Of a DNA stretch of 64,000 nt, positions 10,140 to 56,117 are shown in pieces (the stretch's first letter is position 1; the number at the start of each line of letters is the position of its first letter). The notes below the pieces were generated by a model that made no database searches, was not told the origin of the DNA, and was given only the letters and a program-made list of their open reading frames with translations. The DNA comes from an uncultured Candidatus Saccharibacteria bacterium (GTDB taxonomy: Bacteria > Patescibacteriota > Minisyncoccia > Phycocordibacterales > UBA918). The stretch spans positions 96,679 through 160,678 of the forward strand of contig CAYOAM010000001.1 of the NCBI GenBank assembly GCA_964402035.1. Direction: 5' to 3'. The position numbers and the translations under genes are program-made.

Positions 10140-10508
10140 ATGAACATAAAAGAAATATTAAAACTTAGCAGCATTCCCGTTGTGCTCGCGTCGTTGTGCT
10201 GTCTCTCGCCAGTCATCCTTGTGCTCCTGGGTCTCGCTTCAGTGAGTTTTGCTTCCTCACTTGCAGATACGTTTTATGGGGAATACAAGTGGGTCTTTCG
10301 TATGGTGGGACTCATAGCCCTTTTAGGATCCCTCGCGTACTACTTACGCCGCACAAAAGGTATTTGCACGATCGATGATGTAAAGCGAAGACGAAATGAA
10401 ATATTAAACTACATTGCACTCACGGTCATTGCGGGGGTTGTGGGGTACATTTTTTTCCTCTATGTTGTGGTGCACTATGTAGGTGTGTGGCTAGAGATTT
10501 GGAAGTAG
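10140..10508 (+). CDS. Small MerT-like membrane protein with vicinal Cys pair in TM1
   Basis: LASLCCLSPVILVLLGLAS resembles the MerT TM1 CC motif. Three TM helices, 122 aa. The 3' end is duplicated as a 39-bp repeat at 11503-11541. Confidence 0.35.
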   Translation: MNIKEILKLSSIPVVLASLCCLSPVILVLLGLASVSFASSLADTFYGEYKWVFRMVGLIALLGSLAYYLRRTKGICTIDDVKRRRNEILNYIALTVIAGVVGYIFFLYVVVHYVGVWLEIWK

Positions 10509-10518
10509 TTGGTATTCT

Positions 10519-10821
10519 CTAACCCGTGACGTTAATATTTTGAGATGATGGGTGAGGTTTAGCTTTTGGATCCGATTGGTTTGCTGTGTTTATAGCATCC
10601 TTTATGATGGGTAAAAAGAAATAGATACTTGTCGCCATAGCAATGGAAGCGACAGTGAGAAGTAGATACGCTGCTTGCTTTTCATTTCCAACAATATGCT
10701 TCCTGACTAAAAATGCCGCCATGCCCCGTCGGAGACGTTGATGTTGTCCGTGTGAGACTTGTATATTTTCTTCTTGAAATGTGACTAATGTCATAAATGC
10801 TGGTCTAATTTTAACACACAC
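10519..10821 (-). CDS. Small membrane protein, hypothetical (pilin-module partner)
   Basis: Single TM helix. Positional paralog of 11633..11839, each lying immediately downstream of a pilin gene. Confidence 0.3.
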   Translation of the reverse strand: MCVKIRPAFMTLVTFQEENIQVSHGQHQRLRRGMAAFLVRKHIVGNEKQAAYLLLTVASIAMATSIYFFLPIIKDAINTANQSDPKAKPHPSSQNINVTG

Positions 10822-10872
10822 GGTATGCCTTTATATTAGGGAGTGAGATCTTGCTTTAGTACTGTACTACGG

Positions 10873-11475
10873 TCATGGTGACGAATATATGCACGCGCTA
10901 TCATCTGGTGCTCGGTTGAATACTACGTTGCCACCCCACGCCTCAATTCCACCAGGATCTATACCCCCGTCGTTCATGGTTGCATGGTATCTTTTACCCG
11001 CCCAACGGAATGTCATCCAGTATCCACCATCATAGACATGTACGCATCCAAGCCTCATGCCAGTGTATGCGTCGGTATAATTCATACCTATGTAGCTTGG
11101 TCCTATATGCTTTAGATATAAATAACCACTATATGCGCCTGGAAATGGGACTTGGGGGTAGTTCGGGTACGGTATATTAGCTAGATAGGGTAATAAAATG
11201 TTTCCAAGATCGTCCCACTCTGCCGGGTAGTAACTCTGACGTCTGAATGGTGCAATAGTGACAGGATAATATCCGTTTGTGTCATGATATAACTCCACAG
11301 CATTTTGTACGGCTCGCAGGTCAAGTGCTGCTTTTGCAATAGACGTCGCTTCACGCGACTTTGTAAGTGAAGCGAGTACCACACTTGCCAAAAGTGAAAT
11401 AATAGCAATGACTACCATAAGCTCAATAAGTGTAAAGCCGTAAACATGATTCAGCTTTTTCAGTAGTCTCTTCAT
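10873..11475 (-). CDS. Type IV pilin-like protein (prepilin-type N-terminal cleavage/methylation domain)
   Basis: MKRLLKKLNHVYG|FTLIELMVVIAII: short basic leader, G-1, F+1, E+5, hydrophobic helix. Start chosen at MKRLL. Confidence 0.8.
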   Translation of the reverse strand: MKRLLKKLNHVYGFTLIELMVVIAIISLLASVVLASLTKSREATSIAKAALDLRAVQNAVELYHDTNGYYPVTIAPFRRQSYYPAEWDDLGNILLPYLANIPYPNYPQVPFPGAYSGYLYLKHIGPSYIGMNYTDAYTGMRLGCVHVYDGGYWMTFRWAGKRYHATMNDGGIDPGGIEAWGGNVVFNRAPDDSACIYSSP

Positions 11476-11632
11476 GTGCATCATTATAGGATACAAAGTT
11501 CTTTCCTCTATGTTGTGGTGCACTATGTAGGTGTGTGGCTAACCATTTGGAGCTAGTCTCTAAAGGGTGGCATTGCTTTTCTGGAAGCATAATCCATCCC
11601 TATAATTCTCTTTTTGGGTCCTATTTCGTGTG

Positions 11633-11839
11633 TTATGTAGTCTTTATTTTAACAAAATTGGGATCGTCGGGGTGAAATAATCTGGGGGCAAACGTAGTGT
11701 ATAAAATATAGCCACTGAGAGCGAGGCAGAAAAAAATTACTACAAAAAACACTAGTATCTCTTTTTTTGAGTGTTGTGCTTTTGCCGATGTTCGGCGCAC
11801 TTTTGTAACACTCTCTTCTTGAAATTGAATAGTGCTCAC
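11633..11839 (-). CDS. Small membrane protein, hypothetical (pilin-module partner)
   Basis: Single TM helix ILVFFVVIFFCLALSGYILY. Paralogous position to 10519..10821. Confidence 0.3.
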   Translation of the reverse strand: MSTIQFQEESVTKVRRTSAKAQHSKKEILVFFVVIFFCLALSGYILYTTFAPRLFHPDDPNFVKIKTT

Positions 11840-11841
11840 AG

Positions 11842-12474
11842 TTAATTGTTTATGAATATGTGACCGGGGTGACAGCCGGTGGGATCTGAAACCATGTCTA
11901 CTGATCCTCCTGCCACCTCAAAGGCTTCTGGATCTGCACCACCATCATGTGTAGAGATATAAGATGGGCGATTTACCCACGCGCCATATAAATAATAGCC
12001 GTTTCTAATATAGACACACCCTACAGTGCCGGCGCTGATAGTACTTATGTTCAATGCTAGGTCTCCCATACCTGCAGACTGTTTGACATAATAATAGTGT
12101 GAGGTTGCTGTCGATGGATATGGGGGGTAGGGCATTGCCGATAAGTATGGTTGTAATAAGGTCCCAATACTATTTAGATACACATAACCCCAGAAATTGT
12201 AAATGACACCTAATTCAACGCGAGTCGAAGCGTCCCGTCTAGAGCTAATTGGTGGGTAATCGCCGTGGTCCTCTTTGTATTGTTCAAGTGCAAGCTGAAT
12301 ATTTTTTATATCTTGCATAACTTTTACCCACGTCGCTTTTTCTCTTGCCGAGCTTACTGAAGCAAGTACCGTACTTGAGAGTACTGAAATAATAGAAACC
12401 ACTACCATAAGCTCAATCAGCGTAAAACCATACGCATATTTGTACTTTTTAAGATGTTTCTTCATCTTCGTCAT
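11842..12474 (-). CDS. Type IV pilin-like protein, paralog of 10873..11475
   Basis: KKHLKKYKYAYG|FTLIELMVVVSII prepilin motif. C-terminal DGGADPEAFEVAGGSV region is similar to the first pilin. Alternative start at 12465. Confidence 0.8.
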   Translation of the reverse strand: MTKMKKHLKKYKYAYGFTLIELMVVVSIISVLSSTVLASVSSAREKATWVKVMQDIKNIQLALEQYKEDHGDYPPISSRRDASTRVELGVIYNFWGYVYLNSIGTLLQPYLSAMPYPPYPSTATSHYYYVKQSAGMGDLALNISTISAGTVGCVYIRNGYYLYGAWVNRPSYISTHDGGADPEAFEVAGGSVDMVSDPTGCHPGHIFINN

Positions 12475-12775
12475 TATATCTAACTATTAGGCGTTATCAA
12501 AGAAATAATTATTACCGTCTTTGCCCGGTATTTCTGTTATACTCTCTGTATGTTGATATCCTTATTGGTAGGAATTTTATTGATGTGTCTCTTCTACTTT
12601 GGGTACACCACAAATGTTAAGGATGCTACTACAGAGACACCTCCGTCAGTGACCATTGAAAATTATGATACCTTCATCGACAAGGCACATACAGCTACTG
12701 ATCAGATTGAATCGAAGGCTGATCGCATGGAGGAGGTAGAGTAGCACTCGATGTGCTAGGCTAGTCTGTATCCAT

Positions 12776-14029
12776 ATGAAAACGACTGCAGAAAAGCACT
12801 TTGATGTCATCGTCATTGGGGGAGGAGCGGCCGGGATGATGGCTGCCGGCCGCGCCTCTGAGCGCGGCCGGCGTGTGCTTCTGCTCGAAAAAAACAAAAA
12901 ACTCGGAGAGAAGTTGAGAATCTCTGGTGGTGGACGGTGCAATATCACCAATGCCGAGTTTGACGAACGAACACTTTTAAAAAACTACGGAGCAGGGGAG
13001 CAGTTTCTCTATTCACCCTTTTCACAATTTGGCGTACAGGATACCTTTGATTTTTTTGCATCGAGAGGGTTGTCGCTTGTCGTACAAGAAGGGAGACGTG
13101 CATTTCCACACACAGAAAAAGCAATTGATGTGTACACAGTACTTTATGACAATCTGGTAAAGACAGGAGTTGTAATCAAAACACATAGTCCCGTAACACA
13201 CATCGAGAAAAATGGAGATACTATAGTGTCGGTTAGTGTGGGTGAGGAAACCTATACTGCAGATTCCTACATCCTCGCAACTGGTGGAGTCTCGCATCCG
13301 GAAACAGGTTCAACGGGGGATGGCTTTGCGTGGCTTCGAGGGCTTGGACACACCGTTTCAAAACCAACACCAAGTGTGGTACCGCTGGCGGTTTCGGATT
13401 CATGGATACGGTCGCTCAGTGGAAAGTCACTGCCTGACGTCAAGATCACATTTTTTCAACATCAAAAAAAACAGTTTACAAAGACAGGGAAAATACTCTG
13501 TACGCATTTTGGCGTTTCAGGTCCTATGATTTTAAATAGTGCGCATTTAGTCGCTGATCTTTTGCATGGAGGTGTGGTCACGGCATCAGTCGATCTGTTT
13601 CCAAAAGTCGATATGGGTGAATTGGACAAAACGCTCATTGCGCAATTTGAAATACACAAAAATAAAGCATTCAAAAATGTATTGCGCGAACTAGTCCCAC
13701 CGGGGACAACATCAGGTATCATGATGGCTTTTTCTGATCGTATCGATCCGGAGATAAAAGTGCACAGCGTAACAAAAGAGCAGCGCAGGGCGGTCGCACA
13801 CCTGCTCAAGGCACTACCGCTCACGATCACGGGTCTTATGGGTTTTGATCGCGCGGTCGTCGCCGACGGTGGTGTGCCACTTTCAGAAATCGACACCCGT
13901 ACCATGTGTTCAAAAAAAATTAAAAATCTTTACATCATTGGCGACTTGCTTGATATCAACCGTCCCTCTGGTGGCTACTCACTCCAACTTTGTTGGACCA
14001 CTGGCTTTGTGGCAGGAGATCACGTGTAG
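12776..14029 (+). CDS. HI0933/BaiN-like NAD(P)/FAD-dependent flavoprotein oxidoreductase
   Basis: Rossmann motif DVIVIGGGAAGMMAA and the GGGRCNITN signature typical of the HI0933-like family. Confidence 0.85.
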   Translation: MKTTAEKHFDVIVIGGGAAGMMAAGRASERGRRVLLLEKNKKLGEKLRISGGGRCNITNAEFDERTLLKNYGAGEQFLYSPFSQFGVQDTFDFFASRGLSLVVQEGRRAFPHTEKAIDVYTVLYDNLVKTGVVIKTHSPVTHIEKNGDTIVSVSVGEETYTADSYILATGGVSHPETGSTGDGFAWLRGLGHTVSKPTPSVVPLAVSDSWIRSLSGKSLPDVKITFFQHQKKQFTKTGKILCTHFGVSGPMILNSAHLVADLLHGGVVTASVDLFPKVDMGELDKTLIAQFEIHKNKAFKNVLRELVPPGTTSGIMMAFSDRIDPEIKVHSVTKEQRRAVAHLLKALPLTITGLMGFDRAVVADGGVPLSEIDTRTMCSKKIKNLYIIGDLLDINRPSGGYSLQLCWTTGFVAGDHV

Positions 14030-17861: not shown

Positions 17862-19457
17862 ATGGAACAACGCAGATTTAGTAGTGCAAAAGGAAGAAGT
17901 TTCGGAGGTGCTCGAGGCGGTTCACGCTTTTCACGTCCGACACAAGGTGGATCACGAAGTGCGGCTCCTCGCGGAGACGGACATCGAAGTGCATCACATA
18001 CGGGCGGGGCGCAAAGTCCTCGTTCATACGGCCGCAGTGATAGTGCGCACGGATCACGAACGGGTGGTCATTCGTCATATCGAGGTAGCAATACCGGTAG
18101 TTTTAGTGCACGTAGCAGCTACAGCCCACGTCCAAGTACGGGCCATACTACTCATGGATCCGCTACTGGCGGAAGTTATCGCGGTGGTGATTCCCAGGGG
18201 GGTTACCGATCATCAGGATCACGCCCTACTTCCGGATATCGAGGTAGAAGTAGTTTTGGCTCACGACCAAGCTATAGCGCCAGTCGTGGCGGTTCACGCT
18301 TTGGCGGAGGACGCAGCGGTGGTGGTCGCCGAGGTGGCGGATCACGTGATGAGCGCATTGATGCATCACGCTTTATCAACAAAGCGGTCATCACGGAAGA
18401 GATTGAACACTTTACGCCAGAGCACGCATTCACCGATTTTAAAATCGGTGAGGGTTTGAAGAAAGCAATTACTGCCAAAGGATTCAAGAATCCAACACCG
18501 ATTCAGGATCGAAGTATTCCGCATATTTTGCAGGGCGCTGACGTTGTTGGTATCGCAAATACCGGTACCGGAAAAACAGGAGCATTTTTGATTCCTCTCA
18601 TTCATAAGGTGCTCGAAAATCCACGTGAGGGGGTGCTGGTGGTCGTGCCTACACGCGAACTTGCAATGCAAATTGATGAGGAGCTCCAGGGATTTGTTCG
18701 TGGTTTGCAGGTACGAAGTGTGTGTTGCTTTGGTGGCGCAAACATCAGTCGACAGATTGAAGCGTTGCGCCAACACCGACACTTTGTGATTGGTACACCA
18801 GGACGTCTCAAGGATCTTATTGAGCGCCGAAAGCTCAATCTCTCGGGCTACAAGACTGTGGTACTTGATGAGGCTGATCGTATGCTCGACATGGGATTTG
18901 TGCACGATATGCGTACCATCATGGCGCAGCTATCGAAAGAACGTCAGACATTATTTTTCTCAGCAACTCTTTCGCCTGATATTGAGAAATTGATTGGTGA
19001 GTTCTTGAAAGAGCCAGTACGGATTTCAGTAAAGACGCGTGACACATCAAAAAATATTGACCAAGATGTAGTTCGTGTACCACGTGGTGGATCGAAATTC
19101 GATATCTTGGTAGATCTACTCAAAAAGACTGATTTCACTCGTGTGCTTGTCTTTGGTCGCACAAAGCATGGCGTTGATAAACTGACAAAGTTGCTCTTAA
19201 AAGCAGGAGTGTCAGCAGAATCTATTCATGGTAATAAAAACAATGCGAAGCGTCAGCAGGCTTTGAAACTCTTTAAGGCTGGACGTATTCGCGTAATGGT
19301 TGCTACCGATGTTGCGGCTCGAGGTCTTGATATTGCTGACGTAAGTCACGTGATCAACTTTGACGTACCAGCAACCTACGATGATTATGTGCACCGTATT
19401 GGCCGCACAGGTCGTGGTGAAAAGAAGGGAACTGCACTTACTTTTATTGAAGAATAA
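17862..19457 (+). CDS. DEAD-box ATP-dependent RNA helicase with a 170-aa N-terminal RG/RS/GY-rich disordered extension
   Basis: Q-motif region; Walker A ANTGTGKTGAF; VLDEADRMLDMGF (DEAD); SAT; HRIGRTGRG. Residues 1-170 are low complexity (GGSRFS, SYRGG, GGRSGGGRRGGGSRDE). Confidence 0.9.
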   Translation: MEQRRFSSAKGRSFGGARGGSRFSRPTQGGSRSAAPRGDGHRSASHTGGAQSPRSYGRSDSAHGSRTGGHSSYRGSNTGSFSARSSYSPRPSTGHTTHGSATGGSYRGGDSQGGYRSSGSRPTSGYRGRSSFGSRPSYSASRGGSRFGGGRSGGGRRGGGSRDERIDASRFINKAVITEEIEHFTPEHAFTDFKIGEGLKKAITAKGFKNPTPIQDRSIPHILQGADVVGIANTGTGKTGAFLIPLIHKVLENPREGVLVVVPTRELAMQIDEELQGFVRGLQVRSVCCFGGANISRQIEALRQHRHFVIGTPGRLKDLIERRKLNLSGYKTVVLDEADRMLDMGFVHDMRTIMAQLSKERQTLFFSATLSPDIEKLIGEFLKEPVRISVKTRDTSKNIDQDVVRVPRGGSKFDILVDLLKKTDFTRVLVFGRTKHGVDKLTKLLLKAGVSAESIHGNKNNAKRQQALKLFKAGRIRVMVATDVAARGLDIADVSHVINFDVPATYDDYVHRIGRTGRGEKKGTALTFIEE

Positions 19458-30269: not shown

Positions 30270-30572
30270 CCTACCGTCATTCGATGATTGTGAAAGTCCA
30301 AAGGTCAACTGCTGATAGCTATTAATTGAGTTGCGTTGATAGTCAGCACATTCAAGCAGAAGTTACTTTGTTTCGTTTCTGTCTAATCATAAACGTATGT
30401 TGGTATTTATAGAGTCAGCACAAGCTATTCAAGGATTGCTGCTTAAAGATTTTATGGAATATCATGTAGGTAATGATATTTCTTGAGGGGTAGTGTGTAC
30501 AGATCAAGTCTTTTTAGTTATTGCGTGCTAGTATTGAATTAGTAGGTTCGTATGCTGTCTTGGTACAGCGCT

Positions 30573-31223
30573 ATGATAAAAAAGATTAGACAAAAGTTAA
30601 AAAAATTATCAAAGAAAAAAGGTGAGGAGCAGGATACTGGCTTCACGCTTATTGAGATGTTGGTCGTGATCGCTATTATCGCTATCTTATCTTCGGTTGC
30701 GTATACTGCGGTTGGTAGCGCGCGTGCAAAAGCGACAGATAAGGCAATTATTGCGTCACTCGAAGGAATGAGACTGATAGCAAGATCAATATATGAAAAA
30801 AATGGGTGTTATGCCGCAAGCGTAGAAGCATGCACGGGCTTTTTGGAGCGTGGTGTACTTGTAACGATTGATGGACACGGAGCGTACGATTGTCGTAATG
30901 GCTCTACAATGTCGGCGTACGCAGGTACCCATTATTTTGATAGTGATCCAAAAATCAAAGCCGCATTAAGAGCAGTAGCAGATCATGTGGGCAATGTTCC
31001 GTATTCTGTGTCTTGCAAATCAAGCGTTGGTGGTGCAGATTGGGTTATTTCTGCTACTTTGAAATCTGATCCGTCTAAGCGATGGTGTGTGGATAGTAAA
31101 GGAAATAGCAGGCTCGTAACACCTGGTACGTTTGCTTATCCACCAATTCTTGCAATACCTCCTAGTGATTTTGGTTTTACAAATCCAGGGTTTGATGGAA
31201 TTTCGCATTGTAAAAGCAGTTAG
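30573..31223 (+). CDS. Type IV pilin-like protein, tandem paralog
   Basis: MIKKIRQKLKKLSKKKGEEQDTG|FTLIEMLVVIAII. Nucleotides around the start codon are near-identical to the upstream paralog. Confidence 0.75.
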   Translation: MIKKIRQKLKKLSKKKGEEQDTGFTLIEMLVVIAIIAILSSVAYTAVGSARAKATDKAIIASLEGMRLIARSIYEKNGCYAASVEACTGFLERGVLVTIDGHGAYDCRNGSTMSAYAGTHYFDSDPKIKAALRAVADHVGNVPYSVSCKSSVGGADWVISATLKSDPSKRWCVDSKGNSRLVTPGTFAYPPILAIPPSDFGFTNPGFDGISHCKSS

Positions 31224-33312: not shown

Positions 33313-33657
33313 AAAATGAAAATCGCATTGCGTGTTTTTATTTTTTGTTTTGGGGTAAAAATCAATATTGCATTTCTTTTATTTTATTTTCTGATGATGA
33401 AGAAGCGTAACTTCTGCACATAGTGTGCACAGTTTATGCAGTAGTTTTCCACACCACTTTTTTATATTTTCTGGCTTAGTTATTTACTAGGCTTAAAAGT
33501 TTTCCACAGAAATGTTTGTCAAGAACATATTTTTTGACAGTGTGACGATGTAATGGTTTTAGATTGTTGACGGTCTATGATGTATAGACGAATGCACTCG
33601 TCATGCATGAGAGCTTCGATCTTTATACATTTGTTATTAATAAGTTGTTCATTGAAA

Positions 33658-35088
33658 ATGAAAAGAATAATCACAAGTATCGGTATGATCGTCTTTGTTG
33701 GGGCGATGATATACGGAGGTACCGGCGCGTTTTTTAACGATACCGAGACCTCAGTCGGCAACGTCTTTACTGCGGGAGCTATTGACCTCAAGGTTGATAG
33801 CCAGCAGCATTACAACAACATGATCTGTGTTGAAAATCCGTCACCAGCTGAAGGAGACTACTACTGGCAGCCAGAAGTAGGATTTACTCCAGGTGTTGGA
33901 CATTACCCAGCGACGGGTACTGTTTGCGATGGTACCTGGACACTTACTGACCTTGGCGCAACAAACAAGTTTTTTAATTTTAGCGACGTAAAGCCAGGTG
34001 ATCAGGGCGAAAACACCGTTTCACTTCATATTGACAACAACCCAGCATGGGCATGTGTCAACATCAAGACGACTGCAAATGACGAAAACACTAATATTGA
34101 GCCTGAAGTAACTGCAGGTGATAACACCACTGGCCCAATCGGAAACGGTGAGCTTGCGGGAAATATTAATTTCCAAGTATGGCTTGACGATGGTGCTATC
34201 GATGGTTTTGGGGGTGAGGACGTAGGAGAAGGTGACAATATCTGGCAGGTAGGTGAACCGGCACTCGCAAGTGGCGCCATGAGCGACATTGTGGGAAATG
34301 GTCTTACGCTCACACTTGCTGATGGTGGTACTGGTAATCCTCTTCCTCCAACAGTAACCGACTATATTGGTATGTTCTGGTGCGCAGGTGATGTAACAGG
34401 TGGTGCAGGAAATCTCGGTTGCGACGGATCAACGATGGATAATACTTCACAGACAGACTCGGTGACCGCTGAAGTTACATTTATGGTTGAACAAGCTCGC
34501 AACAATGCAGCGTTCCGTTGTGTTCCACCGGTAGTTCCTCCAACGGCAACTACAACCATTACGGTTAATAAAGTAGTTGTTAACGACAACGGTGGTACTG
34601 CGGTAGTGGGAGATTTTGCTCTCACTGTGAGTGGTATCGGAGCGGTTGTTTCTGGAGCAGCAAATGTTGTTGCAACAGGTACCTATGATGTCAATGAGAC
34701 GGGAATTGGTGGATACGCAGCAACATTTGGTGGCGACTGTGATGTTGATGGAAACGTGACCGTTACGTCAGGGCAAAATGCTGTCTGTACTATTACCAAT
34801 AATGATATTCCAGCAAGCATCACGCTCAACAAGGTGGTCATCGGAGGTAATGCAACGACTACTGACTTTACACTCCGTGTAAATGGAAACGTAGTTCCAT
34901 CGGGCGGATCAGTGTCAGTCAATGGAAACAGTACACATACGATTAATGAAGATGCACTCGCAGGATACAACTTCACTTCAATAACAGGTGATGCGAAGTG
35001 TCCAGCAGTACTAGGCGGCGCAACATCGGTGTTGAATCTTGCAGAATCAATAACCTGCACGATCACAAACACAGCAGAAATATTCTAG
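33658..35088 (+). CDS. TasA/camelysin-like secreted protein with SipW-cognate signal peptide and C-terminal Ig-like (SpaA/Cna-B-like) repeats
   Basis: MKRIITSIGMIVFVGAMIYGGTGAFFNDTETSVGNVFTAGAIDLKVD matches the SipW-cognate (AFFSDTE...FTAGTLDL) class. Repeated VCTITNND / ITCTITNT beta-domains. Confidence 0.75.
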   Translation: MKRIITSIGMIVFVGAMIYGGTGAFFNDTETSVGNVFTAGAIDLKVDSQQHYNNMICVENPSPAEGDYYWQPEVGFTPGVGHYPATGTVCDGTWTLTDLGATNKFFNFSDVKPGDQGENTVSLHIDNNPAWACVNIKTTANDENTNIEPEVTAGDNTTGPIGNGELAGNINFQVWLDDGAIDGFGGEDVGEGDNIWQVGEPALASGAMSDIVGNGLTLTLADGGTGNPLPPTVTDYIGMFWCAGDVTGGAGNLGCDGSTMDNTSQTDSVTAEVTFMVEQARNNAAFRCVPPVVPPTATTTITVNKVVVNDNGGTAVVGDFALTVSGIGAVVSGAANVVATGTYDVNETGIGGYAATFGGDCDVDGNVTVTSGQNAVCTITNNDIPASITLNKVVIGGNATTTDFTLRVNGNVVPSGGSVSVNGNSTHTINEDALAGYNFTSITGDAKCPAVLGGATSVLNLAESITCTITNTAEIF

Positions 35089-35168
35089 TCCTCTCTAGCC
35101 GTTCAAAGCACCATTCGTGGTGCTTTGCGGGCTGCAGAGAACAGCACTTATATATTTAATAACTTTAT

Positions 35169-36920
35169 ATGCCGCGCATACTATTAAGCCTTGCTCTCAT
35201 CGCTCTTGTCGGTGGATCGCTCGTGTTTGGAGGCACGACTGCATTTTTTTCGGATACTGAATCGTCCGCAGCAAACGTCTTTACGGCGGGTGCTATCGAT
35301 CTTCAAATCGACAATGCGAGCTACTACAACGGTGTGTTTAATGAGGGGACATCGTGGGCGATGACGGATCTAACAGAGACTGAAAAGTTTTTTGATTTTG
35401 CTGACTTAAAACCTGACGACTACGGTGAAGACACCATATCGATTCATGTCGATAGCAATGATGCATATCTCTGCGCGGATGTGACCTTGACCACAAATGA
35501 TGACAATGGTCTCACGGAACCAGAAGTTGATGTTGATCCAAATGGTGACGGAGCTGGCAACGGTGAACTTGCGGATTTGGTGAATTTTATATGGTGGGCA
35601 GATGATGGGGACAATGTACTTGAGGACGATGAACATGCAATATCAAATGGACCATTGGGCGCCCTCGCACTCGGTGAGGTGAACACTATCCCACTTGCAG
35701 ATACGGAGAATAACATTTGGACCGGTACAGCGGGTCCTATCGCTGGTGGTGTAACTAAGTTTATTGGCAAGGCATGGTGCTTTGGTACGCTAGGAACTAC
35801 AACGATCATCGCTCAGGACGGCGTGGGAGATGTGCGCACACCAGCGGATGATAACAACGGAGACCTTGTTGCAGGTACCCCTGAGGATGGAGGTTATACC
35901 TGTGACGGCTCAACGTTAGGTAATGAAAGTCAGACAGATTCTTTGACGGCAGATATCAGTTTTGACGCCGTGCAGGCTCGACACAATCCAAATTTCACCT
36001 GTCTGGGGCCAACAGGCGGGTCAGTGACGACACTTACGTTGGTGAAACTTGTGATCAATGATGATGGTGGTACAGCGTCTTCATCAGCGTGGACGCTTCA
36101 AGCCGATGGTCCGACTGACATTTCAGGCACTTCAGGTAGTGTAAGTGTTACGAATGCACCGGTCGTACCCGGAGCATATACACTCTCTGAACTCAATGGA
36201 CCTGCGGGATATGTTGCTTCGCAATATAGTTGTATCGTAAACGGTGGAGCACCGGTAGTTGGGAATGCAATCAATATTGCGGAAGGAGAATCGGCGGTCT
36301 GTACTATCACAAATAACGATGAGAATGTGAGCTGTGAAATATCAGAAGTGCAGACCCTCATTCCTGACAGTGGCTTTGAAAACCCTGAAGTGACAGCGGG
36401 AGCGCAATGGGATGTCTTCAATTCTCCTGCGGGCGCATGGAACGTGTTATGGCGCGATGACATACCTGCAACCTTTGGATCACAAAATCGCCCAAATCCT
36501 GCACGTCTAGAGATCCATGAAGGTGTGCTTGGTGCCGCCTTTGAAGGAAATCAATACACCGAGCTTGATAGTGATTGGGGTGGACCATTGGATAGCGGTA
36601 ATGGCGAACCAGCATCCGTCACCATATATCAAGACATTCCGACAACACCAGGGAACACGTACAGAATCAAGTTTGCCTTTGCTCCTCGTCCAAATACCGT
36701 AGCGGCTGAAAATAAACTCGAAGTCCGTTGGGGAGGAGACCCTGTGTTTGATAGCGGTAATGTTGCTGATCCAAATGGAGGTATTGAGTGGCAGCCAATG
36801 ACCTTTGATGTCCTTGCTACGACAACAACAACACGACTTCAGTTTACGGATCTTGGCACTGCAAATTCGCTTGGTACATTCCTCGATGACATAAAGCTGT
36901 TTGGTGAAGTGTGCCAGTAG
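35169..36920 (+). CDS. TasA/camelysin-like secreted protein paralog with C-terminal DUF642-like beta-sandwich domain
   Basis: GGTTAFFSDTESSAANVFTAGAIDLQIDN. The C-terminus has GFENPEV...WDVFNS...NQYTELDSDWGGP, shared with 36955, 44488 (twice), and 7276-like modules. Confidence 0.75.
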   Translation: MPRILLSLALIALVGGSLVFGGTTAFFSDTESSAANVFTAGAIDLQIDNASYYNGVFNEGTSWAMTDLTETEKFFDFADLKPDDYGEDTISIHVDSNDAYLCADVTLTTNDDNGLTEPEVDVDPNGDGAGNGELADLVNFIWWADDGDNVLEDDEHAISNGPLGALALGEVNTIPLADTENNIWTGTAGPIAGGVTKFIGKAWCFGTLGTTTIIAQDGVGDVRTPADDNNGDLVAGTPEDGGYTCDGSTLGNESQTDSLTADISFDAVQARHNPNFTCLGPTGGSVTTLTLVKLVINDDGGTASSSAWTLQADGPTDISGTSGSVSVTNAPVVPGAYTLSELNGPAGYVASQYSCIVNGGAPVVGNAINIAEGESAVCTITNNDENVSCEISEVQTLIPDSGFENPEVTAGAQWDVFNSPAGAWNVLWRDDIPATFGSQNRPNPARLEIHEGVLGAAFEGNQYTELDSDWGGPLDSGNGEPASVTIYQDIPTTPGNTYRIKFAFAPRPNTVAAENKLEVRWGGDPVFDSGNVADPNGGIEWQPMTFDVLATTTTTRLQFTDLGTANSLGTFLDDIKLFGEVCQ

Positions 36921-36954
36921 ATGTCTTAAGTCCTCGTCGATCGCGAGTGCACAT

Positions 36955-38433
36955 ATGTCACGCACCTACATAAAAATAGGAGTACGCACAACCCTCATAG
37001 TGGGGGTTGTCGCGTTACTGGTGTATGCACTCGGTGTACGAGGATCTTCTGTTGGGGCAACATTTGCAACGGGGTCAGGCACCGGTGGTCTTGAGATGAA
37101 AATTGATAGTCGTACGATCTATAATGGCGTCTTGCAACCAGCGCTCTCGTGGGCACTCAAGGACCTCACTCCGTGGGCAGACCACTTCTTTAACTTCGGT
37201 GACGTAAAGCCCGGAGATCACGGTACCAACACGATCTCAATTCACATCAAAAAGAACCCAGCATGGGTATGCCTTGATTTTGTGAACCTCAAAGACAAAG
37301 AAAACGGCAAAAATGAACCAGAATCACAGGTTGATGGAACAAGTGATGGTGAGCTCTCACATGAGCTTGAGTTTTTCTCGTGGATGGATGATGGGGATAA
37401 TAAGTACGAAATAGGGGAGCGCGCCCTGTTTGGGACATCCACGCAATCTGCGTTTGAGGTGCTCAAAGGAAAGAGCTATGCACTCGCGGATGCACATACT
37501 GGCACAGCTTTTCCTGCGGGACAAACAAAGTATGTGGGTGTGGTGTGGTGTGCGGGTGATCTCAGTGTCAGTACGACGACGGCCTCTATAGCATGTAATG
37601 GTGAGGCGATGGGTAACGAGGCGCAAACTGACTCCATGAGCCTTGATGTGGCGCTCCGTGCAGTCTCATCAAAAGATCAAAAAAGGTTTTCGTGTACCAA
37701 CGATACACCTGAACCGGCGTTGTGTTTGGCGCGTGGCAACCTCCTCAAGAATGGTAGCTTTGAAAAACCAAAAGTGGGGAGAGCAAAGTGGGACGTATTC
37801 CCTTCAGTTGTGGGCGGACTCGAATGGACGGTCGCTTGGGTTACTCCTGCAACCAATTCTCCTACGGTACCACTCTTGGAATTGCAGCGAGGACTTCCTG
37901 CGTTCGAGGGCAAACAGTTTGCAGAACTCGATTCAGATTTCTATGGACCTCCGGGCGGCAACTATAAAGGCGAAAAAACGTCTGTCGCGATTTCGCAGCT
38001 TGTCGACACAACTCCCGGCGCTCGGTACACACTGACCTTTGCTTTCTCTCCATTGCCGAAAACAAATGCTGCGGACAATGCGGTGCAGGCAGTGATCGGT
38101 GGAGTAGCGCATGGCGCGCCAATCTCACGCAATGGTTCAGCGCTTACGACAACATCATGGACCGAACATACCTTCTCGTTTGTGGCGACGAGTACCAAGA
38201 CCCGGGTAGCGCTCGTTGATGTAGGCAAGACCACTTCGTTTGGAACACTCGTGGATGATGTCTGGTTCGGATGCAAGAATCAGCGAGAGGATGATGCAGA
38301 CGATCATAATGATCATAACGACGACTATGATACGCCGTGGCATGAGGAGCATACGCGTGGTGGCTGGACGTCTGTTGTTGGGTACTGCAAAGAACTTTGG
38401 GATGATATAAAAGGTAAGGGAAAACGCGTATGA
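36955..38433 (+). CDS. TasA/camelysin-like secreted protein, third paralog, with DUF642-like C-terminal domain
   Basis: N-terminal domain paralogous to the two above (FNFGDVKPGDHGTNTISIHIKKNPAWVC). C-terminal NGSFEKPKV...GKQFAELDSDFYGPPGG. The signal-region motif is degenerate. Confidence 0.65.
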   Translation: MSRTYIKIGVRTTLIVGVVALLVYALGVRGSSVGATFATGSGTGGLEMKIDSRTIYNGVLQPALSWALKDLTPWADHFFNFGDVKPGDHGTNTISIHIKKNPAWVCLDFVNLKDKENGKNEPESQVDGTSDGELSHELEFFSWMDDGDNKYEIGERALFGTSTQSAFEVLKGKSYALADAHTGTAFPAGQTKYVGVVWCAGDLSVSTTTASIACNGEAMGNEAQTDSMSLDVALRAVSSKDQKRFSCTNDTPEPALCLARGNLLKNGSFEKPKVGRAKWDVFPSVVGGLEWTVAWVTPATNSPTVPLLELQRGLPAFEGKQFAELDSDFYGPPGGNYKGEKTSVAISQLVDTTPGARYTLTFAFSPLPKTNAADNAVQAVIGGVAHGAPISRNGSALTTTSWTEHTFSFVATSTKTRVALVDVGKTTSFGTLVDDVWFGCKNQREDDADDHNDHNDDYDTPWHEEHTRGGWTSVVGYCKELWDDIKGKGKRV

Positions 38434-39995
38434 AAGTCTTCTACGCCTTATGCCGAGGTTTGTTTATATTCCTATTGCTCGGGGTTGCTGCACTCTTTTT
38501 GGTACCGGTACTTCCTATAACGGGTAATATTGATATCAAGATTGTGAAGTCAGGTTCTATGGAACCTGCGATTATGACCGGGGCGGTTGTTGTGGTACGG
38601 CCACAAGGGGACTATCATATTGGGGATGTGGTGACGTTTCAGAGCGCTTCAGCGGATATTCCGACTACGCACCGGATAGTGGAGCAGCGTGCAGAAGGAA
38701 ATGCGCTTTTTTATACAACCAAAGGAGATGCCAATGAAGAAGCTGATACAGAAGAGTCGCCAAAAACCGCGGTTATTGGAAAGGTTCTGTTTTCTATACC
38801 GTACGCAGGATATATTCTCGATTTTGCACGACAGCCATTGGGATTTATGGTCCTTATTGTACTCCCGGCGTTTTTGATAGTTTTTGATGAAATAGAAAAA
38901 ATCTGGCGAGAGTTTAAAAAATTGCGCAGCAAAAAAGAAATTGTCGGTGTTGCTGACCTAAATTCGAATAGCGCAGTATCACAAGAGACGGCAGTTGATA
39001 CGCGACCGCCGCTGCGTATGATGGAGATTAATGTGCCAGTGTATCCGCGGGGATACGGCAACAAAGCACTAAATGCCTATGGCCACACCGCTATCTTGTC
39101 CCTTCCACAAAAGCGCTCACTCCCTGCGTATGTTGAATGGTGTATGGCAGCATTGTTTTCTGTTGTTGTGTCCGTAGCACTCGTTGGTGTAGGTTCTGTC
39201 GGATCGACGGTCTCATATTTCAGTGACACCGAGGGGACTATTGCCAATGCACTCATGGCGCGTTTTCTAGATTTTACTGCTAGTGCGGATGCGCAAACAC
39301 TCACGTTTATTGGTACGGAACTTGCCGATAATAGTGCCGTCGCGTCAATGATTGTACCCTTGTCTGGGAGCGCTGATGTGCTCTACACCATGCACGTAGA
39401 AACGGCGACCGGTACTGATGCATTTTGTGGTGCGATTTTGACGCATCTTGATTCACCGATTAGCTATGATGGTCCACTTCGTGACCTTTCATTTGACGAA
39501 GCGCTATTGCTTGGTGACGATTGGCAAATGTTCCCGACACTTGCGCCCGATGCGGTCTTTGTCCCTGGGGAGATATGCGTGCTCGATATTGTCTATCAAG
39601 GGCGTGATAGTGATAGTCCGGTTGGTGGGTACAGTGATGAAGAACGGGTGAGTCTACAATTTACCGCACCTATCGATATTAGTGGCGCAATCGTAGAACC
39701 GTTTGCTGCACCAGCATTTCTGATATTTTCTGAACATGGAGAAGCTGAGTTACCTACTGAAGAAGCTACAACAACAGAAGATGAGCATGCGTCGTCAACT
39801 CCACCTAGTGAAGTCTTGGACATCGTGTCACCTGAGGCAGTGGTGCCAGAGGATATACCATCTGCGAATACGGTCGAAATTGAGGATGAGGAAGTGACGG
39901 AAGAAACGGAGGAAGTGGAACTCCCGATTGACGTGGAAGAGGAAACAATACAAGAAGAGACGGTAACTGAACCTGTCGTGACGGATACTGTATAA
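38430..39995 (+). CDS. sipW: SipW-type (S26B, archaeal/ER-type) signal peptidase I fused to a C-terminal TasA-like/acidic domain
   Basis: SGSMEP catalytic Ser motif, H at TTHRI, TKGDANEE box, and N- and C-terminal TM helices like B. subtilis SipW. Then about 330 extra aa carrying a second TM plus a SipW-cognate-like motif (VGSTVSYFSDTEGTIANALMA) and an acidic E/T/V-rich tail. Confidence 0.8.
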   Translation: MKVFYALCRGLFIFLLLGVAALFLVPVLPITGNIDIKIVKSGSMEPAIMTGAVVVVRPQGDYHIGDVVTFQSASADIPTTHRIVEQRAEGNALFYTTKGDANEEADTEESPKTAVIGKVLFSIPYAGYILDFARQPLGFMVLIVLPAFLIVFDEIEKIWREFKKLRSKKEIVGVADLNSNSAVSQETAVDTRPPLRMMEINVPVYPRGYGNKALNAYGHTAILSLPQKRSLPAYVEWCMAALFSVVVSVALVGVGSVGSTVSYFSDTEGTIANALMARFLDFTASADAQTLTFIGTELADNSAVASMIVPLSGSADVLYTMHVETATGTDAFCGAILTHLDSPISYDGPLRDLSFDEALLLGDDWQMFPTLAPDAVFVPGEICVLDIVYQGRDSDSPVGGYSDEERVSLQFTAPIDISGAIVEPFAAPAFLIFSEHGEAELPTEEATTTEDEHASSTPPSEVLDIVSPEAVVPEDIPSANTVEIEDEEVTEETEEVELPIDVEEETIQEETVTEPVVTDTV

Positions 39996-52528: not shown

Positions 52529-53362
52529 ATGCGGCGACATCTTAAAGCTGGTCTTATTGGTCTTTCTGCTGTGATACTCACAACGTTGGGTATCTCTGCG
52601 TCCGATACCCTCGAAGGCGTTTCGGGCTCACTCCTAAGCATGGCATTAAAAAGTGAGGAGATTAGAACAGGGTGCCCGTCTGATATGGCTGAGGTGACGG
52701 TTGGCTCTCGAAGAATATGTGTTGATGTGTTTGAGGAGAGCGCGGCACCGGTGTGTCCGCATCGTGACCCACAAAATGTACAGGAAACAGAACGAAATAT
52801 TGGTGGTGCGGGGTGTATTCCTGAAGCAAAAAAGGACACTAAGCCGTGGAGATTTATAAGTATGAGTCAAGCGCAACGCGCATGTGCGAGCGCTGGTAAG
52901 CGTTTGCCAACCAACGAAGAATGGTATCGTGCGGCGCTCGGTACGCCTACAAATAACGACAGGTTATGCAATCTCCATACACCACAGACGCAAGAGCCTC
53001 GAAATGCTTCGGAAACTGCTTGCAAATCAACCGTCGGGACATACGATATGATTGGCAACGTATGGGAATGGGTTGATGAATCTGTTACGGAGGGTTCGTA
53101 CAGAAACCGTCAAATACCGCAAACAGGGTACGTGTCCGGTGTTGATGCAGACGGTGTTGCATTGCTTTCGGCGACGGTAGAGGACGCACTGTATGGTAAT
53201 GATTATGCATGGTCTACTCCTACAGGGGTACGCGGTATGATACGTGGCGGCTTTTATGGTAGTGGTGAAGACGGTGGTCTCTATACATTGAATGCATCGA
53301 TTGATCTTGCTTTTAGCAGTACTGGTGTCGGTTTTCGCTGTGTACGAGATTACGAAAAATAA
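52529..53362 (+). CDS. Membrane-anchored FGE-sulfatase (SUMF1/DUF323) domain protein
   Basis: N-terminal TM; NVWEWVDES; RGGFYGSG; GFRCVRD: hallmarks of the formylglycine-generating-enzyme fold. Confidence 0.7.
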   Translation: MRRHLKAGLIGLSAVILTTLGISASDTLEGVSGSLLSMALKSEEIRTGCPSDMAEVTVGSRRICVDVFEESAAPVCPHRDPQNVQETERNIGGAGCIPEAKKDTKPWRFISMSQAQRACASAGKRLPTNEEWYRAALGTPTNNDRLCNLHTPQTQEPRNASETACKSTVGTYDMIGNVWEWVDESVTEGSYRNRQIPQTGYVSGVDADGVALLSATVEDALYGNDYAWSTPTGVRGMIRGGFYGSGEDGGLYTLNASIDLAFSSTGVGFRCVRDYEK

Positions 53363-53389
53363 AGCGAGTATCAGCTATACTATAAGGTA

Positions 53390-54232
53390 ATGAAACGCGT
53401 CATGAAAAGTGCGCGGTGGATTTTTGTCACCGTTGGTGTCATTGCTCTTACGAGTATCACGGTAGATGCTACCTTGAGTGGACATTCGCTATCACAATCT
53501 GCTCTAGGAATATTAGCGACATCGGTAACGGAGACCAATACTGGCTGTAGTGATGGTATGGCGCTCATTGGCGGTGATTTTAATGCCGTGTGTGTAGACA
53601 TATATGAGGCGTCGCCAGGCGCAACCTGTCCAAGCAAGGAGGTAGCGAATGTAAACGATACACGTACCAACATAAACACAGGCAGTTGTCTCCCGGCATC
53701 AACAGCCTCTGCAAAACCGTGGACGTATGTGACGTTGAATCAAGCGCAAGAACTCTGTGGTAGGGCAGGTAAGCGACTGTTAAGTAATGCAGAATGGTAC
53801 CGCGCGTCGTTAGGTTCTCCCGATATCGGAGGAGAAGTAGCATGTAATATTAGAACAGATGGCGCTATGCAGACGGGCAAGTACCCACAATGCGTCTCAG
53901 GTATGGGTGCTTTCGATATGATAGGGAACGTATGGGAATGGGTTGATGGGTCGGTAGAAGAAGGAAAGTATCGGGATCGTATGCTACCGACAAGTGGGTA
54001 TGTTATTGAAACCGATGCTGATGGTGTTGTTACGAAGACACAGGGGTCCGCTTCGTCCGATTTTCATGAAGATTATTTCTGGTCTGAAGCTTCTGGTGTG
54101 TATGGTATGCTGCGCGGCGGGTTTTATGGGAGCGGAAGTGATGCAGGGGTGTATAGTCTCCATGCAAAAACAGCAACATCGTTTGCAGGCGCCGCAATCG
54201 GTTTTCGCTGCGCACTTGATTTGAAACGTTAA
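53390..54232 (+). CDS. Membrane-anchored FGE-sulfatase domain protein, tandem paralog
   Basis: NVWEWVDGS; RGGFYGSG; GFRCALD. Same architecture as the upstream gene. Confidence 0.7.
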   Translation: MKRVMKSARWIFVTVGVIALTSITVDATLSGHSLSQSALGILATSVTETNTGCSDGMALIGGDFNAVCVDIYEASPGATCPSKEVANVNDTRTNINTGSCLPASTASAKPWTYVTLNQAQELCGRAGKRLLSNAEWYRASLGSPDIGGEVACNIRTDGAMQTGKYPQCVSGMGAFDMIGNVWEWVDGSVEEGKYRDRMLPTSGYVIETDADGVVTKTQGSASSDFHEDYFWSEASGVYGMLRGGFYGSGSDAGVYSLHAKTATSFAGAAIGFRCALDLKR

Positions 54233-54233
54233 T

Positions 54234-56117
54234 ATGCAGTATTTTGCACTTTTACGCACAACAATGTTCGCACGTATGAGATTTGGTATCTCTACTGCTC
54301 TCGTGTACGGCGTTTTTTTCTTGCTTGGGATCTCTATCATTAGCGGTTTCTTATTTATATACAACAATCAATCACAAGCACGCAATATCACGACCTTTAG
54401 TGATACCTTGACTGATTCGGCGCCGGGTGAGTACTCAAATCATACGATTGAATTTCAGCTGGATGTTGCTGTCCCAGCAGGCGGATATATTCGTATTACA
54501 CCCGAAGATGGAGCCTTTACCATCCCGGCCGTCGATTTTGACATTGATCAAGTTGAACTTTTCGTTGCCCCACCATCCTTGGGCTATACCGTACGAGCCG
54601 CATCAAGTACTGCTGACGCTACGTATGATGGTATTGCTATAACAACCGGTACATCGGGCAATGTGCTCTATACATTGAATGCATCCGCAGGTATTAGTGC
54701 AGGAAGCGACGTGCGAATAAAGATAGGTACACACACCACAAACTCCACTACCACGGATGTTGGTGTGTTGAATCCTGTAGCAACAGGCACGCGTCAAATA
54801 CTCATAGAAGCTGGCGGTGGTGCGAGTGATGCAACAGCTCGAGCTCTTGTTGCAATTATTGATTCAGTTGGTGTTGGCCCAGTGGATACGACAGAAGAGA
54901 TACCGCCTGTGCGCTTCAATGGAGCGCCAACGGGGACGCTGTCAGGAACTGTAACCGGCGTTGAGATTTCCCTTGAAACAGATGAATTTGCACGCTGTAG
55001 ATTCTCTACTGCTTCAGGGACGCCCTTTTTGTCCATGACCGATGAGTTTACCGTGACGGGGTCTATTTTTCATTCCTTGGTGCGAACTGGGTTATCTGCA
55101 GATACTACGTATACATTTTTTGTGCGTTGTATAGATGATGAGAACAACTACAATATCGATGACTACGAGATAACGTTTACCATTCCACCACCTCCCGAAG
55201 GAACCCCAGGTGATGGAGATGATGGGAGTGATGGCGAAGACGATGGTTCAGGTTCTGGTGATGATGGTTCGGGGGATGGTACGACAGGTGGCGATGAAGA
55301 TAGCGATGAAAGTGGTGGTGGAACACGAGGCGGCGGCGGCGGTGGTGGTGGAACAAACAGCGATGATGATGTGTACGAAAGTGGTGACGCAACTGTCATT
55401 ATAAGCGGTTATTCATTTCCAAGTAGCAAGGTGTCGATTTTAGTCGATGGCGATATTGCAGATACAGTGACCGCAAATAGTGCAGGTGTGTTTTCTGTCA
55501 CGCTTGATGCCATAGCGAGGGGTGTCTACAGCTTTGGTGCATACGCTACCGATCGCAGCAATGTTAAATCTTCGACTTTTTCAACGACATTTACGGTTAC
55601 CGGTTCTCGTGTCTCTACACTCTCGAATATTAATCTCATGCCGTCGATATCTGTTGCTCCAAATCCCGTTGATGTCGGAGCGACAGTCACATTTTCTGGC
55701 TATGCAATAGCAAATAGCACCATCACGATTGAAACACAGCAGGACAAGAATGGTACGTCCCCAAAAACGCTTACCGCAACGTCAGATGGTATCGGTAAAT
55801 GGTCTGCAACGCAGTCCACGGCAGGTTTTGCCAAGGATAAGTGGAAGGTGCGCGCTAAGTCCGCGCAAATTGAGGGCAGTATATCTACAAATTTTTCGCA
55901 GTACACATACTATGCTGTGGGTACTGCAGCGGTGCCACCAACGGGTAACAATTCTGACCTAAATCGTGATGGAAAAGTAAATTTGATTGACTTTTCCATC
56001 CTGCTTTTCCATTGGAACACGAATGGTGGTGCGTCTGACCCTCCTGCGGACATCAATCGCGATGGTCGTGTTAGTTTGACTGACTTTTCGATCATGATCT
56101 TCAACTGGACCGGCTAA
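54234..56117 (+). CDS. Surface protein with Ig-like domains, Gly/Asp-rich linker and C-terminal dockerin-like Ca-binding repeat pair
   Basis: C-terminus DLNRDGKVNLIDFSILLFHW and DINRDGRVSLTDFSIMIFNW: two DxNxDGxVxxxD F-hand segments, 31 aa apart. Confidence 0.6.
   Translation: MQYFALLRTTMFARMRFGISTALVYGVFFLLGISIISGFLFIYNNQSQARNITTFSDTLTDSAPGEYSNHTIEFQLDVAVPAGGYIRITPEDGAFTIPAVDFDIDQVELFVAPPSLGYTVRAASSTADATYDGIAITTGTSGNVLYTLNASAGISAGSDVRIKIGTHTTNSTTTDVGVLNPVATGTRQILIEAGGGASDATARALVAIIDSVGVGPVDTTEEIPPVRFNGAPTGTLSGTVTGVEISLETDEFARCRFSTASGTPFLSMTDEFTVTGSIFHSLVRTGLSADTTYTFFVRCIDDENNYNIDDYEITFTIPPPPEGTPGDGDDGSDGEDDGSGSGDDGSGDGTTGGDEDSDESGGGTRGGGGGGGGTNSDDDVYESGDATVIISGYSFPSSKVSILVDGDIADTVTANSAGVFSVTLDAIARGVYSFGAYATDRSNVKSSTFSTTFTVTGSRVSTLSNINLMPSISVAPNPVDVGATVTFSGYAIANSTITIETQQDKNGTSPKTLTATSDGIGKWSATQSTAGFAKDKWKVRAKSAQIEGSISTNFSQYTYYAVGTAAVPPTGNNSDLNRDGKVNLIDFSILLFHWNTNGGASDPPADINRDGRVSLTDFSIMIFNWTG

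Follow-up and report, generated by a model that had tools for sequence, protein, structure and literature searches.

In Neisseria, antigenic variation of the pilin takes place by gene conversion, in which promoterless, 5'-truncated silent copies (pilS) feed the expression locus (pilE). Campbell-type integration and tandem segmental duplication leave scars in which a direct repeat of the homologous segment flanks the insert, and recombination between the repeats can reverse the event. In Rhs systems, insertion and displacement (C-terminal displacement) give rise to core fragments that are identical but carry dissimilar tips (Jackson et al. 2009, PMC2935791), and the effector-immunity arrays of the Vibrio cholerae type VI secretion system (T6SS) are proposed to have been built by homology-facilitated illegitimate recombination (HFIR; Kirchberger et al. 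2017, PMC5361080). Here, we describe a pilin locus in a stretch of 64,000 nt (called the window) from an uncultured Candidatus Saccharibacteria bacterium (assembly GCA_964402035.1, contig CAYOAM010000001.1, positions 96,679 to 160,678), in which the 3' end of a gene for a MerT-like membrane protein is repeated beyond a type IV pilin-like gene and its small membrane partner. As in displacement arrays, an identical core fragment is followed by a dissimilar tip; the locus has no polymorphic toxin with an immunity gene. It is most likely the recombination scar of a cassette addition at a variable surface-protein locus, that is, a tidy but fairly ordinary by-product of recombination.

The MerT-like gene (10140..10508, + strand) is an open reading frame (ORF) for a protein of 122 aa with a CC motif in the first transmembrane (TM) helix, and the 3' end of the gene is the duplicated segment. 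A first-pass annotation of the window had described a perfect 39-bp direct repeat, one copy of which codes for the C-terminus of this protein while the other lies in non-coding DNA. It placed the two copies on either side of a pilin gene (10873-11475) and a small membrane gene (10519-10821), with a second module behind them (11633-12474), and we found this layout as described. The window contains exactly two copies of the 39-mer (10455-10493 and 11503-11541), both in the same orientation, where none is expected by chance. The exact core is in fact 40 nt long (10454-10493 = 11502-11541), and if mismatches are allowed, the repeat covers 59 nt with 90% identity (10451-10509 and 11499-11557), so that it reaches and includes the MerT-like stop codon. 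The offset between the copies is 1048 nt. No other direct repeats of 30 nt or more are present in the window, where the remaining exact repeats of at least 20 nt are a palindrome at 18430 and two pairs within tandem paralogous genes at 53-54.7 kb.

Direct inspection of the two copies brought out three features beyond the first-pass annotation: the repeat reaches the stop codon, the gene end kept in copy 2 is intact and family-like, and copy 2 takes the place of the -35 region of the first pilin gene (pilin 1). Copy 1 (10454..10493, + strand) encodes (F)FLYVVVHYVGVWL, the best-conserved C-terminal motif of the MerT-like family, and is followed by tail 1 (10494..10508, + strand; GAG ATT TGG AAG TAG, or E-I-W-K-stop), the present end of the gene. 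Copy 2 (11502..11541, + strand) is now non-coding. It is located between the start of pilin 1 and the stop of the second small protein gene (small protein 2), at the expected place of the pilin 1 -35 box, and the sole ORF called over it is an overlapping minus-strand ORF of 55 aa that we take as spurious. Tail 2 (11542..11556, + strand; ACC ATT TGG AGC TAG, or T-I-W-S-stop) is in frame with copy 2 and appears to be the relic of a former gene end. A spacer of 76 nt (11557..11632) leads from this relic to the stop of small protein 2; over its first ~35 nt it is about 55-65% identical to the region after the MerT-like stop. On the other side of copy 2, a junction of 13 nt (11489..11501; GGATACAAAGTTC) without clear homology to either parent sequence connects it to the 5' region of pilin 1. 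A continuation of the homology left of copy 2 into 11480-11501 was rejected, since 5/13 ungapped matches correspond to chance level. Sensitive blastn and tblastn searches of the whole window revealed no further gene-end relics. Read along the minus strand, the order is thus promoter, pilin 2, small protein 2, spacer, copy 2 with its tail, junction, TATAAT, pilin 1 and small protein 1, the last being separated by a gap of 10 nt from the end of the convergent MerT-like gene that carries copy 1.

The repeat is real and fixed in the population; it did not arise as an artefact of the assembly. ENA ERZ3430527 NODE_5, a contig of 452,957 bp with about 20x coverage, contains the window. The same layout is found in ERZ3430525 NODE_7292 (6,888 bp), with two single-nucleotide polymorphisms (SNPs), both outside the locus, and in ERZ3430528 NODE_42683 (1,734 bp), which spans window positions 10144-11877, including both copies, with two SNPs; these are three SPAdes assemblies of different samples. 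The default k-mers of SPAdes are longer than 40 nt. Three Logan contigs built with k=31 (SRR7369912) cover the locus: one ends at 10483, one spans 10464-11531 and one starts at 11512. Each contig end lies exactly 30 nt (k-1) within the 40-nt repeat, as a real two-copy repeat predicts, and all four repeat junctions are thus present in the reads. In particular, the junction from the upstream region of pilin 1 into at least 30 nt of the repeat sits within one Logan contig, hence in reads. The misjoined or collapsed repeat against which the first-pass annotation had cautioned is therefore not supported, as the three assemblies agree and the Logan contigs break at k-1.

It is hardly credible that two strain alleles of one locus, or a chromosome and a 1048-bp circle, were joined through a shared k-mer. 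The k=31 graph does form a loop at the locus, and k-mers alone leave the number and order of traversals unfixed; all data come from the ERZ34305xx assemblies and SRR73699xx runs, which we take as one sample series, and a genuine chimera formed via pilin k-mers occurs in the same data. However, the tandem order is reproduced in the three SPAdes assemblies, including the contig of 452,957 bp and the 1.7-kb contig over both copies, and alternative junction products, such as a MerT-like protein ending in TIWS, were never assembled.

The chimeric contig (L082, positions 1-60; ERZ3430528 NODE_117605, 1.5x coverage) matches window positions 12388-13316 with 7 mismatches in 929 nt. It is identical to the pilin 2 promoter and first ~22 codons, after which the sequence switches to '...LLVVIAIIGVLVGLLLPAVQ', an N-terminus typical of DUF1559-type proteins of Planctomycetes. 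At first sight, it could represent another strain with its own pilin allele. We rejected this idea, as the contig is in all likelihood a low-coverage inter-genome chimera formed via GFTLIEL-coding k-mers.

The repeat and the modules that it accompanies differ markedly in age. When the two 1-kb units are aligned globally, identity is 97-100% in the repeat and about 52-60% in the next 35-50 nt. In contrast, the remainder is 17-60% identical, mostly 30-50%, which is near background. The region coding for the pilin N-terminal helix has 62-87% identity if measured per 40-nt window, or 76% if 121 nt are taken together; the longest exact run that we read off the alignments is 17 nt. That so long a region is only 76% identical leaves no sign of general gene conversion between the modules. 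For the pilin residues conserved between modules, 30/72 degenerate codons are identical, which places the synonymous sites near saturation, whereas 12/12 are identical in the repeat (Fisher p=1e-4). In addition, the 59-nt repeat has its six mismatches in a cluster (p=0.004), 40/40 identity being followed by 5 differences in 15 nt. The same stretch in 42 orthologues from other species has 56-85% DNA identity (mean 74%, at most 33/39, longest exact run 17), so that the stretch is under no general constraint at the DNA level and copy 2 stems from this lineage. Judging from these comparisons, the two repeat copies have a very recent common ancestry (or recombined very recently) in this lineage, and the accompanying modules are old paralogues.

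The first-pass annotation had noted this contrast in divergence and had ascribed it to a recent insertion, duplication or gene-conversion event. The contrast holds: the two pilins share 35% aa identity and the small proteins about 24%, and nucleotide identity is 30-50% outside the pilin N-terminus. The class of event is also right, on the strength of the codon comparison (12/12 vs 30/72, p=1e-4) and of the mismatch clustering (p=0.004).

The end of copy 2 points to its former role. In frame, it reads FLYVVVHYVGVWL-T-I-W-S-stop (…VWLTIWS followed by the stop). The last four residues of the family follow the pattern x-[LI]-W-x, with variable first and last positions, and T is a frequent state of the first tail residue (17/113). 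The two tails differ at 5 of 15 nt and at 2/4 residues, with all nucleotide differences in the two family-variable codons and with ATT, TGG and TAG unchanged; the chance of five differences being confined to those two codons is 6/3003 = 0.002. The pattern indicates that tail 2 diverged under coding constraint and not as decaying non-coding DNA. As the frame and the stop are kept and the differences fall only in variable codons, copy 2 would have been a working end of the MerT-like gene until recently, that is, for most of the time since its split from tail 1.

These observations bear on the possibility that an old in-situ tandem duplication of the gene end, small protein and pilin was followed by a recent homogenization of the non-coding copy by a short tract from the live gene. 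The modules are indeed homologous over their whole length and in the same order, the weak homology (about 55-65%) runs ~35-50 nt past the core and a donor is unnecessary. However, the frame, the stop and the nine constrained positions (ATT TGG TAG) should not survive in non-coding DNA while the variable codons saturate (p about 1e-3 or less). From first principles, a 40-nt tract amid about 60% identity would also be a poor substrate for conversion, and the longer homology of the pilin N-terminus shows no conversion. We thus hold this course of events to be decidedly unlikely.

We tentatively propose that copy 2 was once the 3' end of the MerT-like gene and was moved by the insertion of a diverged pilin cassette, a reading that is quite possible, if just short of probable. 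The ancestral locus would have had a single module, with a MerT-like gene ending in ...VWL-TIWS-stop followed by the convergent small protein 2 and pilin 2 genes with their promoter. The donor would have been the long-diverged allele of a close relative, in which a gene end (...VWL-EIWK-stop) was linked to small protein 1 and pilin 1, with the break of the fragment within the pilin promoter. Recombination would have occurred via the sole stretch still identical between them, the 40 nt encoding the best-conserved C-terminal motif of the family, either by a single crossover of a circularized fragment or by HFIR. As a result, the new cassette would complete the MerT-like gene, the old end and the old cassette would be moved 1048 nt downstream, and the 40-nt anchor would become a direct repeat. 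If the repeats recombined with each other, small protein 1 and pilin 1 would be lost and the MerT-like gene would again be intact, with TIWS as its end. We infer from the layout who the donor was, which way the event ran and by what route the DNA recombined. In formal terms, this is the C-terminal displacement of Rhs systems, and it also agrees with the HFIR model of the T6SS arrays. Patescibacteria have been shown to take up DNA by natural transformation and to recombine it homologously (PMC10633639).

Displacement is favoured by the sharp boundary of the 40/40 identity, the coding-type tail, the lost -35 box of pilin 1 and the unhomogenized N-terminal homology of the pilins. It is also favoured by the nature of the anchor: no part of the gene end is better conserved, and recombination of diverged alleles is to be expected there. 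The pilin 2 promoter (12473..12500, - strand) is a near-consensus sigma-70-type promoter (TTGATA-16-TATAAT) that matches at 11/12 positions. The TATAAT -10 box of pilin 1 (11483..11488, - strand), which precedes the pilin start or overlaps it, is kept, and the homology between the modules stops there, at 11488. The pilin 1 promoter is cut between its -10 and -35 boxes, copy 2 lying 14 nt upstream of the -10 box. Such a cut is expected at the illegitimate end of an inserted fragment.

The same truncated promoter, together with the coding-type divergence of tail 2 and the perfect core, could also be accounted for by the loss of a paralogue. An old tandem duplication of the whole unit would have included a complete second MerT-like gene, and conversion would have kept the copies alike except for their tails. 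A recent deletion of most of the second gene and of the pilin 1 -35 region would then have left 59 nt. This sequence of events works without an external donor and accounts for the rarity of the MerT-pilin adjacency, since one lineage suffices. In contrast, it requires three processes, namely duplication, long-term concerted evolution and recent deletion, and two MerT-like genes or C-terminal motifs are present in none of the more than 140 loci that we fetched. Moreover, conversion has left the adjacent pilin N-terminal region unhomogenized (76% identical). We consider this explanation unlikely, with an appreciable chance nonetheless.

Several points weigh against displacement by an incoming cassette. 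The 13-nt junction is without identifiable origin, and the variable tip of the anchor gene is four codons long, so that the tail statistics rest on 15 nt. The polarity could be reversed, with cassette 2 arriving via homology in the right flank. Both cassettes are alike and slightly low in G+C, and neither appears foreign. The 40-mer is unmatched in JGI metagenomes, and no donor-like or single-cassette relative was found, so that the postulated pool of alleles is unsampled. The MerT-pilin adjacency is absent in 64 species-representative loci, and the three closest MerT-like homologues on informative contigs (82-85% identical) follow methionine-sulfoxide reductase (Msr) genes and have no pilins.

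The composition of the cassettes was analysed in this respect. Their G+C content is 42.7% and 40.7%, compared with 46.0 +/- 2.4% for the genome in 1-kb windows, i.e. about 1.4-2.2 standard deviations low. At third codon positions (GC3), the values are 0.33-0.39 in the pilin cassettes and 0.41-0.51 in neighbouring genes, and the trinucleotide distance of cassette 2 is above the 95th percentile. As both cassettes are similarly low in G+C, the test for foreign composition was uninformative.

The database searches place the locus in a single lineage. No contig of the same locus with another number or order of cassettes was found in ENA, JGI, NCBI or Logan. Exact-protein look-ups were made with both flank proteins (64 aa on the right, 167 aa on the left), the MerT-like protein and the two pilins, and every contig retrieved had the identical layout; the 90%-identity clusters of the MerT-like protein, pilin 1 and pilin 2 contain one sequence each. 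The 64 species-representative MerT-like loci have no common gene order and no second copy of the gene end. Only one of them (L040) has a pilin gene nearby, within 0.5 kb; this pilin is unrelated and its gene is one gene apart from the MerT-like gene. The MerT-pilin adjacency is thus essentially unique to this lineage. Similarly, 80 metagenome loci with relatives of the right-flank flavoprotein (at most 62% identical) have no common gene order and no pilins. The nearest pilin relatives are only 38-40% identical. One of these (P0122) has a small partner, but its contig stops before any flank, and another (P0242) is in an unrelated context.

These results also bear on the first-pass interpretation of the locus as a case of pilin cassette shuffling. 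The recent recombination of the repeat stands. Shuffling as a continuing process is not supported: no variant relative was found, there is no deletion-product protein (the same MerT-like protein ending in TIWS) among 15 billion sequences and no other remnant in the window, and the adjacency is essentially restricted to this lineage. A more general idea is that the MerT-like gene end is a recurrent capture site for pilin cassettes in this clade of Patescibacteria, with reversible loss and gain via the repeats. Cassettes would be taken up as DNA, possibly through the pili, and added at the 40-nt anchor; older cassettes would be moved downstream and the anchor gene would always be restored. We give this idea a small chance of being right.

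The truncation of the pilin 1 promoter has implications for its transcription. There is no -35-like hexamer in copy 2 and no predicted terminator between small protein 2 and pilin 1. On these grounds, we infer that pilin 1 is probably read through from the pilin 2 promoter, which probably serves the whole four-gene minus-strand unit. In both modules (11475-11488 and 12465-12478, - strand), the pilin gene has its first in-frame ATG in overlap with TATAAT (TATAATGA...), and a second ATG is found 7-9 nt downstream. This arrangement suggests that the pilin mRNAs may be leaderless, starting at MKR/MKK.

Copy 2 might itself be functional, either as a promoter or regulatory element of pilin 1 or as a 40-nt antisense segment of the pilin transcript, pairing with the MerT-like mRNA at its 3' end. 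It lies 14 nt upstream of the pilin 1 -10 box, and a read-through transcript from pilin 2 would include 40 nt perfectly complementary to the end of that mRNA. However, copy 2 lacks a -35-like hexamer, the fold of the intergenic RNA is not significant (z=-1.5) and has no Rfam match, synonymous sites vary freely across the stretch in orthologues and the layout is unique to this lineage. Furthermore, neither a promoter or regulatory role nor an antisense role needs perfect identity. Such a function is very improbable.

The two minus-strand modules have the same composition. In module 1, the pilin gene (10873..11481; alternative starts at 11475 and 11484) codes for a protein of 202 aa as called, with an N_methyl domain and a G|FTLIE motif, and its partner is a small single-pass membrane protein of 91 aa as called (10519..10794, the ORF reaching 10821) that belongs to no Pfam family. 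In module 2, pilin 2 (11842..12474) is a protein of 210 aa with an N_methyl domain, and its partner (11633..11839) is a single-pass membrane protein of 68 aa. The Pfam N_methyl scores are 32.4 bits for pilin 1 and 30.9 bits for pilin 2 (cut-off 21.2), and both have the prepilin motif, in the form YGFTLIELMVV. Their homology is full length (E=1e-31), and a Cys pair is conserved in both. Type IV pilins have a lollipop fold, in which a long N-terminal helix is packed against an antiparallel beta sheet and the C-terminal region bears a disulfide bond. The AlphaFold model of pilin 1 (pLDDT 77) has a long N-terminal helix (16-67) and a beta sheet of at least six strands. In a Foldseek search of the PDB with this model, the top three matches were type IV pilins, at non-significant values (E 0.28-0.94, TM-scores about 0.3).

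The small proteins 1 and 2 give no BLASTP match to each other but can be aligned at low identity, and they share an N-terminal M-x-x-x-x-F/Y-x-E-E motif and a single membrane helix. An 85-aa protein encoded directly after the related pilin P0122 in another Patescibacterium (L078) aligns with both. These alignments suggest that the pilin and the small membrane protein form a conserved gene pair. The gap between the pilin and its partner is 2 nt in module 2 and at least 51 nt in module 1. No genes for a prepilin peptidase or for an assembly ATPase or platform were found among the ORFs scanned in the window, the rest of the 453-kb contig being outside the scan. A third, unrelated pilin-like gene (30552-31223, + strand) is complete, with an N_methyl score of 35.6 bits and a GFTLIEM motif; no adjacent small partner was noted, and there is no pilus machinery among the neighbouring ORFs.

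The anchor gene belongs to a large and very conserved family; in Patescibacteria, it has over 1000 homologues that are about 80% identical. The Pfam MerT (PF02411) score of its product is 29 bits, under the gathering cut-off of 32.9, and a precomputed PF02411 match is present in many of its homologues. The hallmarks of MerT are a mer operon (MerR, MerP, MerA) and a second cytoplasmic Cys pair. Here, there are no mer genes nearby, and besides C20-C21 the protein has one more invariant Cys (C76). In 25/46 relative loci, an Msr gene (PMSR+SelR, often with DM13) is found directly 5' of the MerT-like gene on the same strand. The MerT-like gene of the window is uncoupled from Msr, with no Msr gene in the 64 kb. 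Given the Msr adjacency in relatives, the sub-threshold MerT score and the absence of mer genes nearby, a role in mercury transport is less likely for this protein than one as a membrane thiol-redox partner of Msr.

Other features of the window lie apart from this locus. Two paralogous large proteins are encoded at 33577-39995 (+ strand), with a camelysin (Peptidase_M73)-like N-terminus and a SpaA_2 prealbumin-fold domain. Behind them come a DUF642 protein and one that matches S24 peptidases weakly. The region may be a locus for TasA/SipW-like or sortase-pilus-like surface fibres. At 52529-56117 (+ strand), three tandem paralogous genes contain exact repeats of at least 20 nt (53057/53927 and 53279/54666), one of which covers a 'GNVWEWVD'-coding motif. 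Finally, the perfect palindrome (18430-18451; CACCGATTTTAAAATCGGTG) lies within a DEAD-box helicase gene (17862-19457).

The locus is a clean, datable case in which a second, very different pilin cassette was apparently added via a 40-nt stretch of a conserved neighbour gene. Its scope at present is one locus in one population. If the same were true in sister genomes, the insertion-and-displacement logic of the Rhs, contact-dependent inhibition (CDI) and T6SS systems would extend to pilus genes, and a relic gene end beside pilin genes would be a simple search signature for cassette exchange in metagenomes. Should the gene end be a recurrent capture site, displacement arrays, so far known for toxin genes, would serve surface-filament variation in host-dependent ultrasmall bacteria. 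Cultivated Patescibacteria are reported to attach to host cells via type IV pili (PMC11623550) and to be naturally transformable.

The comparison with known systems sets aside several of them. Unlike in Campbell-type or tandem duplication scars, the homology is only 40 nt long and the flanked modules are long diverged, hence the locus is not a simple recent duplication. Shufflons and site-specific cassettes were rejected: the repeat is direct, and neither the genes called in the ~6 kb to each side nor the ORFs scanned include an integrase or recombinase. A transposable element was also rejected, as the unit has neither a transposase nor terminal inverted repeats at its ends. Target-site duplications are usually 2-14 bp long, and the repeat is 40 nt when exact and 59 nt when imperfect. 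The locus shares with pilE/pilS the presence of several pilin sequences at one locus and recombination at short conserved segments. In contrast to that system, the repeat is in a neighbouring gene and not in the pilin. A pilE/pilS-type system was rejected, as both pilins are complete ORFs with start codons and signal peptides, without 5'-truncated silent copies or mosaicism.

The pilin-accessory cassettes of Pseudomonas aeruginosa (pilin groups I-V, TfpO/W/X/Y/Z; PMC11841053) are closer, in that a diverged pilin gene is followed by a small accessory gene and the pair acts as a cassette between conserved flanks. An accessory gene adjoins the pilin in both of our modules, and the locus L078 supplies a third such pair. 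However, the small proteins have no Pfam match, their likeness to TfpY/TfpZ being one of gene arrangement, no attenuating terminator is predicted between pilin and partner, and there are two tandem cassettes per genome instead of one per strain.

The likeness to the Rhs, CDI and T6SS systems concerns the arrangement. In each case, a piece of a conserved gene is directly repeated downstream, identical to the live gene, and a dissimilar tip and linked genes follow each copy. In those systems, the pattern is ascribed to new DNA that enters via the conserved segment and moves the old end downstream, and recombination between repeats can delete or re-attach a tip. In contrast to them, the anchor here is the gene of a small membrane protein of housekeeping type and not a toxin gene, and the tip is four codons long. 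The cargo is an operon of pilin and small protein on the opposite strand without an immunity gene, and there is one displaced end and no array. All public contigs of this population share one layout, and no sister lineage was found. Thus, the locus works like a displacement array without being a member of the Rhs, CDI or T6SS families.

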